Assembly (NCBI GenBank): GCA_964187785.1
Contig: OZ076409.1
Span: 78,432,001-78,496,000, forward strand
Length of the DNA stretch: 64,000 nucleotides
Source: Amphiscolops sp. MND2022
Lineage: Eukaryota
Reading direction: 5' to 3'
Shown: in pieces, positions 39,704 through 55,409 of the stretch
Numbering within the stretch: the first letter of the stretch is position 1
How the letters are laid out: every line of letters starts with the position of its first letter
Program-made: the position numbers and the translations under genes
The notes under the pieces: model-generated
Told to the model about the DNA's origin: nothing
What the model saw: only the letters and a program-made list of their open reading frames with translations
Database searches by the model: none

Positions 39704-41551
39704 AGTGATATATATATAGAGTGATATATATAGAATTAGATGATGTGATCCAGACCCTTGAGGCGTTATTCGAGCAACGTTTGACCTTTTCAATACTCTG
39801 TCAGCGGTCTCCGAGTAATTTAGGTTTTTGTCAATATTGGGTTTTAGTGTCAGACACTGGATCAAGAATTCGTGTCATAGTTCATTGCGCGCCTGAAAAT
39901 GCTGATAGATTGGAGCGTTTTTCATCCCATGTCCTTTGAGTCTTGTGAGGTGTCGAGCTGTTTGTCCAATATAGGCATCAGAGCATGTTATTTCATCGAC
40001 CACTTTACATAGGGCCACTTCCATCGACTTGTTGAATGTTAGCCAGGAACTAGTTGTGTTGCATATTTTATTTACGAACCCAGAGACAATGCTCGTTTGT
40101 ATATCTTGGGTCCAAGGGCGTTAAAATTTAGCATGACACCAGTGTCAGGTTTTTTACGTACCATTCGGACCGATAACGTTCCACCAGGAAGTAGATGTAC
40201 CTTCATGTCTTAGAAGGCTAGCCCATTCGTATCATCGGACTCCTCGATCGTGAATTTTACGTTAGGATGCAATCGCCTCAATTTCAAATTTCTTCATAAA
40301 TAAAATTTCTACCTTTTCGTTCTTGAAATACTCTTCTTATATTAATTTAATTTTTCAAGCTCCTAATCTGAGAACAACAAACGAAATCGCGAGTTTCTTT
40401 CCGACGGAAATTCAGGAATCTATTATGAAATCCAATCATTCAGCACTGGTTTACAAAGAAAGATATACACAAAGTTTGTTGGACGAGATGAGAAACAACC
40501 AAATACAACGGTGAGCTGCAGATGTGGTGTAAGTCAGAAAATCGACGAGATAACCTCCGAACTTTCGGAGGAGACGAGAGTGAATAGACACACCAAGAGT
40601 TGTTGTTGTTGTTGAGCCAACAAAGCATGGAGGTTACAATCAATGTCATGTAACGTCAGGCAAGATGGCCGACCTGACAGGTACTGGAAATTGAAAAAGA
40701 GGACAAAAGAGGATCCCATCCCCCACCCAGGAACGAGAAAGTCCGAGATGTCATCACCCAGAAGGCGAGAGAATTAGGAATTCTGCCATCTGACAGCAAA
40801 AAGACAGGGTTTTGGCAGAAAAGTGCCAAATGAGACCATTATGCCCCGAAGATGAGGAATGATGCCAGAGGCAGGAAGCCGATGATCGCCACCGAAATGT
40901 AACTGTATACTTTATTGGGGCCTATCCCCATCTGCTTTGACTGTTTATAGCGTATTTGGATAATGTTTCACCTACTAGGTCCTCATTTTAGTCCTTATTC
41001 ACTCAATATAATGTATTTCAGTTAGACACCTTTTTGGACCTCGGAAGTATGTAGGAAGTCGCGGGAACGTGCTAGAAACCTTAGGATACGTTTTTACAGG
41101 CTTGTGGGGCGTGTCTGGACTTTGAGAGTGCCGGCGCGTCGCTTCGGAGCTCTAACTAGAGAAGCCTCCTTAGACGATAGAAAAGTCCCCCTTGGAGACC
41201 ATTTTGGGATCAAAAACTAGTGTCTAGGTATGTAGTAAGACAACGGTCTCCTGTTTAAGCACCCTAGGCATATTCCCTGGCTTCAAGTCATATTGCTTAA
41301 TGCCATATTGCTTAAAAATCGACCATGTACGAATTGCTTAAAATTTTTTGGGTGGGCGGAAATAGGTCGAAGGAACGGGATCGAAAATCAGAGTTAGTCC
41401 TCAGGTCGACAATACCAAATTTTTGAATGGGATCGAAACAACTCGGATCGAAATTTTTATAACGTAGTCAGATATGTTCACATACCCCTAGTGCCCTGAA
41501 TGCAGGAGCGAAGCGAAGCGGAGCGACGTGCCATATGGCCATGCCTCAATG

Positions 41552-42106
41552 GGTTACCAGTCACTTGGCTTAATACCATTTGGCTTAATTTTTTCGTCGA
41601 GTCATTTGGCTTAAAAATTTTAAGCCAAGTGACCACAAAATTAAGCCAACTCCATTCCAACTCGAGGAATAAATATGTCAACTCCCGGAAATATCATAAT
41701 GTGGGGCATATGCGGTGTATGCACGCTCGCCCTCACCGTCGCAAAGACCAGCTCCCACTACGATCGCTTCGCGATCTTCGTTCCCGCTAGGTCCTTTCTC
41801 CTGTTCGACCTCGCTCAGCAAGATGGGAATATAAGCGGCCCCAAGGGGCCGCAGGGCACTAGAGGAAATGGGGACATATCCGAGGGGTACTCGATATGAC
41901 ATGTTATAAAAATACGCTGACTACGTTATAAAGATAATTTCGACAAAATCTGCCACGTTTTCTACTAAGTGGTTTTAAGTCGAATGCCTTTAAGCCAAGT
42001 GACCAATACCCGAGACACTTGGCTTAAAAAAATTAAGCCAAGTGACCAATTGTATTAAGCCAAATGACTTTAAGCCAAGTGGCTTTAAGCCAAGTGACCA
42101 TTTACC
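41552..42106. mobile_element. 555-bp MITE with 8-bp TSD (superfamily uncertain: Merlin, hAT or MULE)
   Basis: TIRs GGTTACCAGTCACTTGGCTTAA and (reverse) GGTAAATGGTCACTTGGCTTAA; CCTCAATG at 41544-41551 and 42107-42114; internal TTAAGCCAAGTGAC repeats. Confidence 0.8.
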
Positions 42107-54100: not shown

Positions 54101-55409
54101 GATGAGTGCTTTTTAGACAGATGCAATAAGGTGCTAGAAATTTTGAAATTTTGCTGCGAAATTAAAAGTTTGAAATTGTTTTGAATATAAGGCCAAATGT
54201 CTAAAGTTGCTAATATTTTCCAGTGCAAGAACCGTTGTTGGTGTGGAATCCAAGGAAGCCTGTTAGGCTGACAAAAACTCATGTTTTTGGGCAATAACGT
54301 GTTTTTGGGCAACGGCTTCTATTTAGATTCCTGAAGTACCATGTTGCAACAGTATCACTGGATGGTAGCAACCAAGATGTGAACGTCCTCTCTCGTTTGT
54401 CGAGGACGACAAACCGCGGCCCGGGGAGGATGTAACGTCAGGCAAGATGGCCGACCTGACAGGTACTGGAAATTGAAAAAGAGGACAAAAGAGTGCAAAA
54501 GAGGATCCCATCCCCCACCCAGGAACGAGAAAGTCCGAGATGTCATCACCCAGAAGGCGAGAGAATTAGGAATTCTGCCATCTGACAGCAAAAAGACAGG
54601 GTTTTGGCAGAAAAGTGCCAAATGAGACCATTATGCCCCGAAGATGAGGAATGATGCCAGAGGCAGGAAGCCGATGATCGCCACCGAAATGTAACTGTAT
54701 ACTTTATTGGGGCCTATCCCCATCTGCTTTGACTGTTTATAGCGTATTTGGATAATGTTTCACCTACTAGGTCCTCATTTTAGTCCTTATTCACTCAATA
54801 TAATGTATTTCAGTTAGACACCTTTTTGGACCTCGGAAGTATGTAGGAAGTCGCGGGAACGTGCTAGAAACTTTAGGATACGTTTTTACAGGCTTGTGGG
54901 GCGTGTCCGGACTTTGAGAGTGCCGGCGCGTCGCTTCGGAGCTCTAACTAGAGAAGCCTCCTTATACGATAGAAAAGTCCCCCTTGGAGACCATTTTGGG
55001 ATCAAAAACTAGTGTCTAGGTATGTAGTAAGACAACGGTCTCCTGTTTAAGCACCCTAGGCATTTTCCCTCTTCCTAGATGTGCGCCGCTAGCCGGACGT
55101 TACATCAGAACGTTTGCTCGAGGGGTTAGAACTGTCTTCTAATCGTTAATTCAAATCTCAGCTGTAACATTTATCAGTCATGTCATTATCTTAATTCCAG
55201 TATAAAAATAGTTTCTTATTATTAATAGCAACTTCAACTTTAACGAAATTTTGGTAATAATTCTTATATCATGATTTCAGGTCATGACACTACCTGCAAA
55301 TTAAGAAGTTTACTGCATGATTATAATGAGTTTCGAGGAGCATGATGAGTAAATGTTACATGAGCATGTTTGAGATTTGTATATATTTCAGATAGTAATG
55401 ATCAATCAA

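Follow-up and report, generated by a model that had tools for sequence, protein, structure and literature searches.

In the window, i.e., the whole stretch of 64,000 nucleotides that was analysed, two nested LTR elements, A and B, are each flanked by an exact 3-bp target-site duplication (TSD), and the most probable explanation (about 0.75) is that they were inserted by the integrase of a Ty3/Gypsy-type lineage with TG...CA termini, which would cut its target with a 3-bp stagger independently of Troyka. This reading is based on two insertion sites. We also consider it likely that both elements are non-autonomous deletion copies, which represent two subfamilies of one large and abundant lineage of the Ty3/Gypsy type. 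The TSDs of LTR elements other than Troyka are described as 4-6 bp long (PMC12440569), and the preliminary description of this DNA, in which that length was taken as the norm, agrees in this respect with both PMC12440569 and PMC4422553.

Termini and target sites of the two elements

The motif TGTAACGTC was found four times in the window (starts at 40649, 42305, 49631 and 54431), as was its inverse, GACGTTACA (ends at 43016, 50343, 51096 and 55104). All four LTRs of A and B read TGTAACGTC...GACGTTACA and bound two LTR elements, the LTR ends being TGTAA...TTACA, which is of the TG...CA type. The features are as follows.

40649-55104, + strand: element B, LTR element with TGTAACGTC...GACGTTACA ends
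40646..40648, + strand: left TSD of B, TCA, preceded by ATG (flank comparison)
40649..41278, + strand: 5' LTR of B, first piece (626/630 to the 3' LTR of B, one 10-bp indel)
51054..51096, + strand: 5' LTR of B, second piece (44/44 over 51053-51096)
51097..54430, + strand: internal part of B, 3334 bp, without a long ORF (ORF listing)
51113..51130, + strand: PBS-like 18-mer of B, with the sequence and the 16-base spacer of A (sequence)
53505..53576, + strand: Gag-Pol tail remnant of a sister subfamily, 24 codons (19/24 to P0383)
54423..54430, + strand: putative polypurine tract of B, GGGGAGGA, directly before the 3' LTR (function from position)
54431..55104, + strand: 3' LTR of B, 674 bp, TG...CA (end motifs, LTR alignment)
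55105..55107, + strand: right TSD of B, TCA (flank comparison)
41279..51053, no strand: non-coding TIR DNA element, 9.8 kb, inside the 5' LTR of B (TIRs, 9-bp TSD)
42281..42301, + strand: 21-bp minisatellite split by A, left part (repeat phase)
42302..42304, + strand: TSD of A, GGA, which is TCC on the element strand (flank comparison and minisatellite phase)
42305-50343, - strand: element A, LTR element with TGTAACGTC...GACGTTACA ends
42305..43016, - strand: 3' LTR of A, 712 bp, TG...CA (aligned to the 5' LTR of A)
43017..43024, - strand: putative polypurine tract of A, GGGGAGGA, abutting the 3' LTR (function from position)
43610..46224, - strand: SGNH-like extra ORF of A, broken remnant, residues 501 to the end (87-91% to P0163)
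46199..46876, - strand: Gag of A, first 226 codons (97% to P0251, 98% to P0240)
46877..49630, - strand: 5' leader of A, 2.75 kb (~74% to the leader of B over ~2.06 kb)
49597..49614, - strand: PBS-like 18-mer of A, starting 16 bases past the 5' LTR (sequence)
49631..50343, - strand: 5' LTR of A, 713 bp (LTR alignment)
50344..50346, + strand: TSD of A, GGA (flank comparison and minisatellite phase)
50347-50389: 21-bp minisatellite split by A, right part (repeat phase)

The two elements are indeed related, as had been proposed, with LTR types that are 83% identical over the aligned columns and leaders that are about 74% identical. The first 41 bases after the 5' LTR are the same in A (from 49630) and B (from 51097) when read on the element strands. 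The PBS-like 18-mer matches the ERV9 PBS quoted in PMC4724089 at 15/18 positions, as counted by eye, and the ERV9 site is discussed there as corresponding to Arg or Trp. A second TGG is found at base 3 after the LTR in both A and B, and either site could bind the primer; were the distant 18-mer to do so, the cDNA end would carry a 16-base tail.

The junctions of B read ...CAATG TCA before TGTAACGTC (40649) and TCA GAACG after GACGTTACA (55104), while those of A on the + strand read ...AATAT GGA before TGTAACGTC (42305) and GGA CATCA after GACGTTACA (50343). At a length of three bases the flanks are identical at 3/3 positions for each element. At lengths of four to eight, identity falls to 0/4, 2/5, 1/6, 1/7 and 2/8 for B and to 1/4, 1/5, 0/6, 1/7 and 1/8 for A, so that the claim of exact 3-bp duplications (TCA for B, GGA for A) with failing 4-8-bp matches holds at both sites. 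An annotation slip of the kind known for Tirant was considered and rejected, as moving either terminus by one base still gave no 4-bp match. Among sites in the first 26 kb of the window, a random exact 3-mer match has a frequency of 0.021 for one insertion and 4.4e-4 for both. The location of A in a minisatellite had been regarded as a weakness, but the reverse proved to be the case because the array supplies the phase of the empty site. With A and three further bases removed, the 21-bp period was restored at 21/21 positions, whereas with any other number from 0 to 7 only 4-6 of the 21 fitted. Unequal exchange among the repeats would leave the phases at both junctions as they are, so that A has a net duplication of 3 (modulo 21); this control applies to A alone. 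The 3-bp TSDs of A and B are thus real, and better supported than was initially thought.

Both insertions are young because the LTRs of each pair are more than 99% identical, and decay of longer TSDs is therefore unlikely. The alignment of the A pair contains 710 matches, two mismatches and one gap column. In the B pair, four mismatches and a 10-bp indel fall within the 630 bases of the first piece, and the last 44 bases are identical. The 5' LTR of B is interrupted by the TIR element, whose left TSD is formed by the last nine bases of the first LTR piece and whose 9-bp TSD copies are identical at 8/9 positions; the 9-bp length points to a MULE-like element. A sits within this element in the orientation opposite to B.

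Several further observations were made in the window. A small second TIR element (41552-42106), with the 8-bp CCTCAATG at both sides, is nested in the 9.8-kb one. Eight near-identical tandem units of ~1.65 kb each occupy ~26800-40300, a tandem duplication of ~2.17 kb with 99.1% identity lies at 19562-23894, and a host ORF with a TRAF/MATH domain lies on the - strand at 89-1189. A low-depth contig (run X1, record 1) that maps to 42407-42510 has 104 bases equal to the LTR of A followed by 13 B-like bases, which hints at further or mosaic LTR variants. The targets of A (50344-50349) and B (40643-40648), read on the element strand, are both ATGTC(N). The probability of this coincidence is 0.0016 in a fixed register and 0.036 in any register within 19 bp and either orientation, so that it gives only a hint of target selection.

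Coding remnants and their relatives

Pfam gave no matches for the frames of A, and its Gag and extra-ORF parts were then identified by homologue searches. Since the first 226 Gag codons run into the extra-ORF remnant (residues 501 to the end), A is an internal-deletion copy; the remnant itself is interrupted by one stop codon (45259-45261) and shifts frame once, near 44190-44254. Beyond the Gag part of A, the clusters of P0251 and P0240 continue with a capsid-like region, for which some members give weak PNMA matches, and then with CCHC knuckles and a protease. Full Gag-Pol proteins of about 2500-3100 aa were reached through P0237, in which a natural deletion has fused Gag to the integrase. 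The full-length protein nearest to the Gag of A is P0342, a Gag-Pol of 2763 aa with 633 cluster members, a count that, like the others given for these ENA records, which are the closest protein matches of A, includes fragments and may span several assemblies. P0342 is 76% identical to the Gag of A over a fast-changing N-terminus and 89% identical to P0251 over 1360 residues. The link to P0342 is thus made at the protein level, and an intact copy was not seen as DNA. The Gag of P0342 has two CX2CX4HX4C knuckles, and its Pol has the order PR-RT-RH-IN (DTGS 1103, YIDD 1595, RH 1744) and an integrase with intact HHCC and D-D35-E motifs (D2175-D2236-E2272, spacing 35). The integrase also carries a GPY/F-type WRGPH motif, and a motif of the WRGPH/WRGPF type was found in 7/8 of the clade proteins tested, aligning with the YVGPF of Ty3. 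The best PDB match of the family integrase is the Ty3 Gag-Pol (E 4e-28). In a quick RT-RH tree without an outgroup, which took in 43/46 rows and in which Troyka, BEL and Copia were not represented, the 14 rows of the clade grouped together (SH-aLRT 100) among Gypsy-type rows, and no named close relative of the clade was found among these 43 rows. In B, the 24-codon remnant is identical to P0383 at 19/24 positions (E 1.1e-6 against a 3.3-kb subject) and, judged from this similarity, is a piece of the Pol tail from the clade of A.

The integrases of the clade also differ from others two residues after the second catalytic Asp (P0342 2236-2239). Among the 102/106 proteins that were aligned, Ala was found there in 68/71 clade rows and Gly in the other 3/71, which are the most distant ones, whereas the non-clade rows have Gly in 28/31 and Ala in 1/31. 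The residue after this Ala aligns with Ala188 of PFV, a target-DNA contact. Of the sister groups, P0402 and P0404 read D-N-A-P from the Asp onwards, and P0411 and P0413 read D-N-G-T. Because the clade rows are close kin, the replacement amounts to one or two events and is treated as a lead only. A broken, unrelated Gypsy element (RT-RH, integrase) followed by env-like frames occupies ~57400-64000 on the - strand, and these frames have a possible furin site and a hydrophobic, fusion-peptide-like stretch. They may resemble paramyxovirus-type F. This env-bearing Gypsy (~57.9-64 kb) was rejected as a partner of A and B, as its RT-RH is only 26-30% identical to the clade among the top matches listed and self-BLAST revealed no LTR likeness.

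The extra ORF of the parent is represented by P0163 and P0164 (118 and 342 cluster members, counted in the same way) and has a length of ~1363 aa. It has no Pfam match, and its N-terminal block is deleted in A. In the predicted fold of its first domain (model pLDDT 66), most of the top fold matches are SGNH enzymes with Z of 5.4-7.6. The ORF can thus be described as SGNH-like; the likeness is at the level of the predicted fold, with Z below 8, and SGNH enzyme activity is putative. Of the 15 P0163-cluster members that were listed, five are on contigs equal in size to those of listed Gag-cluster members, which fits with both genes being part of one element. P0159 (1540 aa), which is distantly related to the extra ORF, has a GDSL domain just under the Pfam cut-off (E 1.2e-7), which precedes the domain that is common to P0159 and A; from its sequence, this layout suggests tandem SGNH domains. 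Between its two LTRs, an intact parent would have, in this order, a long leader, one Gag-Pol, the SGNH-like extra ORF and a PPT, with an estimated total length of ~17 kb.

Further copies were sought in several collections. Patterns that were built from the LTR ends or from LTR and PBS gave 0 matches in viral, metagenome and genome contig collections, and protein-based locus searches confirmed relatives in 0/36 metagenome stretches, in 0/12 genome stretches and, in the viral searches, in 0 and 0/68. One public run contained 5% of the words, with no RNA run among those listed; its ten contigs showed LTR pieces, and none of the rows listed reached an outer junction of an LTR. The Atlas search returned only leads below 0.9. 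In the open-access papers searched, no Gypsy family was found that combines TG...CA ends with 3-bp TSDs; such a family may be recorded in Repbase or in the supplements of the Troyka paper.

Origin of the 3-bp duplications

The attribution to an integrase with a 3-bp stagger draws on the finding that two young insertions, which belong to different subfamilies and arose independently, both carry exact 3-bp repeats, and on the chain that leads from the Gag of A through P0251 to P0342 with its intact integrase. The precision of all four outer ends, along with the PPT and the PBS-like motifs, also speaks for it. A and B would most likely have been copied in trans by intact members of the family, whose DDE integrase may join normal CA-3' ends to target strands 3 bp apart and may prefer sites that resemble ATGTC; repair of joints spaced in this way would leave a 3-bp duplication. 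Three base pairs would then be the usual TSD length of the family, as extrapolated from two insertions. DDE enzymes that cut 3 bp apart are known from Troyka (PMC12440569) and most members of the IS3 family (PMC10045372). TSD length reflects the spacing at which the two active sites of the integrase hold the target, and shorter TSDs are associated with sharper bending (PMC4422553). A family with 3-bp TSDs has a low prior, perhaps 0.5% as a guess, and is still favoured over two off-mode events, although not beyond doubt. A broader version, in which the whole clade of Gypsy elements with the SGNH ORF has a 3-bp stagger of its own, retains TG...CA ends, selects ATGTCN targets and bears the unusual integrase Ala, is tentative and, in our opinion, rather doubtful.

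Among the alternatives, an ordinary Gypsy family with 4-bp (or 5-bp) TSDs, of which A and B would be off-mode events or copies that lost one junction base after insertion, is unlikely. The Gypsy norm is 4 bp, and TSDs that deviate by one base do exist, amounting to 1.8% overall and up to ~5% in opus and 297 in Drosophila, where off-mode TSDs are mostly one base off (PMC3276498). Table 3 of that work also includes one Copia Dm88 site of 3 bp and two Tirant sites of 2 bp, all in tiny samples. Moreover, oddities are what a genome-wide scan selects, and a 4-bp cut at GTCN with loss of the G at the U5 junction would produce the pattern of both sites. Such a rare event would, however, be needed twice, in different subfamilies and at different targets (~3e-4 or less), the >99% identity of the LTR pairs leaves little time for decay, and no third copy with 4 bp was seen. 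It is also conceivable, but improbable, that only 1 bp of host DNA was duplicated and that the element itself supplied the TC next to its U5 end, either because this end was left unprocessed or because the tail of the leader paired with the target. TC starts both right flanks on the element strand as well as the leader after the 5' LTR, its frequency is 0.061 per site (1592/26000, first 26 kb), and Tf1 inserts made without integrase have flanks that agree with the start of the PBS on the downstream side and with the end of the PPT on the upstream side (PMC11042837). Here, on the other hand, the match ends after two bases, and the upstream flanks agree poorly with the GGA at the PPT end (1/3 for TCA, 0/3 for TCC). 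Because the left-hand TC has to come from the host in either case, this explanation adds a step and removes none. In addition, HIV-1 insertions made with a deficient integrase mostly have no TSDs and have truncated LTRs (cited in PMC11042837), whereas the four outer ends of A and B are precise. The possibility that A and B belong to Troyka, or were mobilised by its integrase, is almost negligible. The 3-bp TSD is the hallmark of Troyka, and sea urchins commonly contain non-autonomous copies of it (PMC12440569), but the TGTAA...TTACA ends, the LTRs of 674-713 bp, the CX2CX4HX4C Gag and the WRGPH integrase all contradict such an origin.

If a 3-bp stagger in a TG...CA Gypsy lineage is the correct reading, the 3-bp TSD is uncoupled from CG ends, and the 3-bp geometry would have arisen at least twice among LTR elements. 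The lineage, with its hundreds of related copies, would also provide a natural integrase in which to study what fixes the stagger. Were the 3-bp stagger common to the clade, no conventional Gypsy integrase with a tighter cut would be known. Structure-based LTR finders commonly require a TSD of at least 4 bp, and those set to 4-6 bp would miss such a family. If the family proves to have 4-bp TSDs, A and B are an ordinary nested pair of defective Gypsy elements.

Comparison with known systems

Troyka, which is named in the preliminary description as a group with 3-bp TSDs, has CG...CG ends, LTRs of 100-400 bp and a CX2CX8-10HX4C knuckle and lacks the GPY/F motif. The combination of a 3-bp TSD with CG ends is its signature (PMC12440569). 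The family of A and B has in common with it the 3-bp TSD (2/2 insertions here), a single Gag-Pol of the order PR-RT-RH-IN, the lack of a tether and the occurrence of non-autonomous derivatives. Membership, however, is at odds with the termini, the LTR length, the zinc-knuckle spacing and the GPY/F motif alike. Troyka LTRs start with CGCCA in 573/603 cases and end with TGGCG in 522/603, and a TG start is absent from the variants listed in PMC12440569, while all four LTRs here are TG...CA. The knuckle of Troyka was found in 0/8 of the Gag-Pol relatives of A that were tested, the knuckle of A itself being deleted, and most of these relatives have the WRGPH-type motif. The internal part of Troyka is also no longer than 7.7 kb, whereas the family here has an extra ORF besides its Gag-Pol, which is 2763-3113 aa long.

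Other systems share single features with A and B. Vesta and Juno of bdelloid rotifers are likewise LTR retrotransposons with an extra ORF instead of env, theirs being of the SGNH type and a precedent for such an ORF (PMC5408684); compared with their GDSL/SGNH ORF3, the extra ORF described here is ~1363 aa long, has no Pfam match and is alike at the level of fold only. The term TSD does not occur in PMC5408684, which provides no TSD data for these elements. DIRS and Ngaro elements, which use a tyrosine recombinase and were considered because of the SGNH domain, were rejected given the direct LTRs, the PPT, a Gag from a family with a DDE integrase and a third duplicated base that varies between the sites. 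Odin and the lokiretroviruses have a tether and a second RNase H (PMC9040795), whereas in P0342 the DAS motif of the RNase H lies 149 residues past YIDD and is followed by the integrase, with neither room nor a Pfam sign for a second RNase H. The IS3 family resembles the A/B family in having an integrase-like DDE enzyme, TG...CA ends and, in most subgroups, a 3-bp TSD (PMC10045372), but these prokaryotic DNA transposons are a precedent for the geometry and not relatives of A and B. The closest overall correspondence is to the Ty3/Gypsy elements (Metaviridae), e.g., 412, mdg1 and gypsy, with which A and B share TG...CA ends, a PPT and a putative tRNA-type PBS (PMC3276498), and their relatives share the domain order, D-D35-E and a GPY/F-type integrase tail. 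They differ from them in the PBS-like motif, which sits 16 bases from the LTR, and in the TSD, which is mostly 4 bp in the Drosophila Gypsy families (PMC3276498, Table 3; 5 bp is modal for Pao) and 3 bp at 2/2 sites here.
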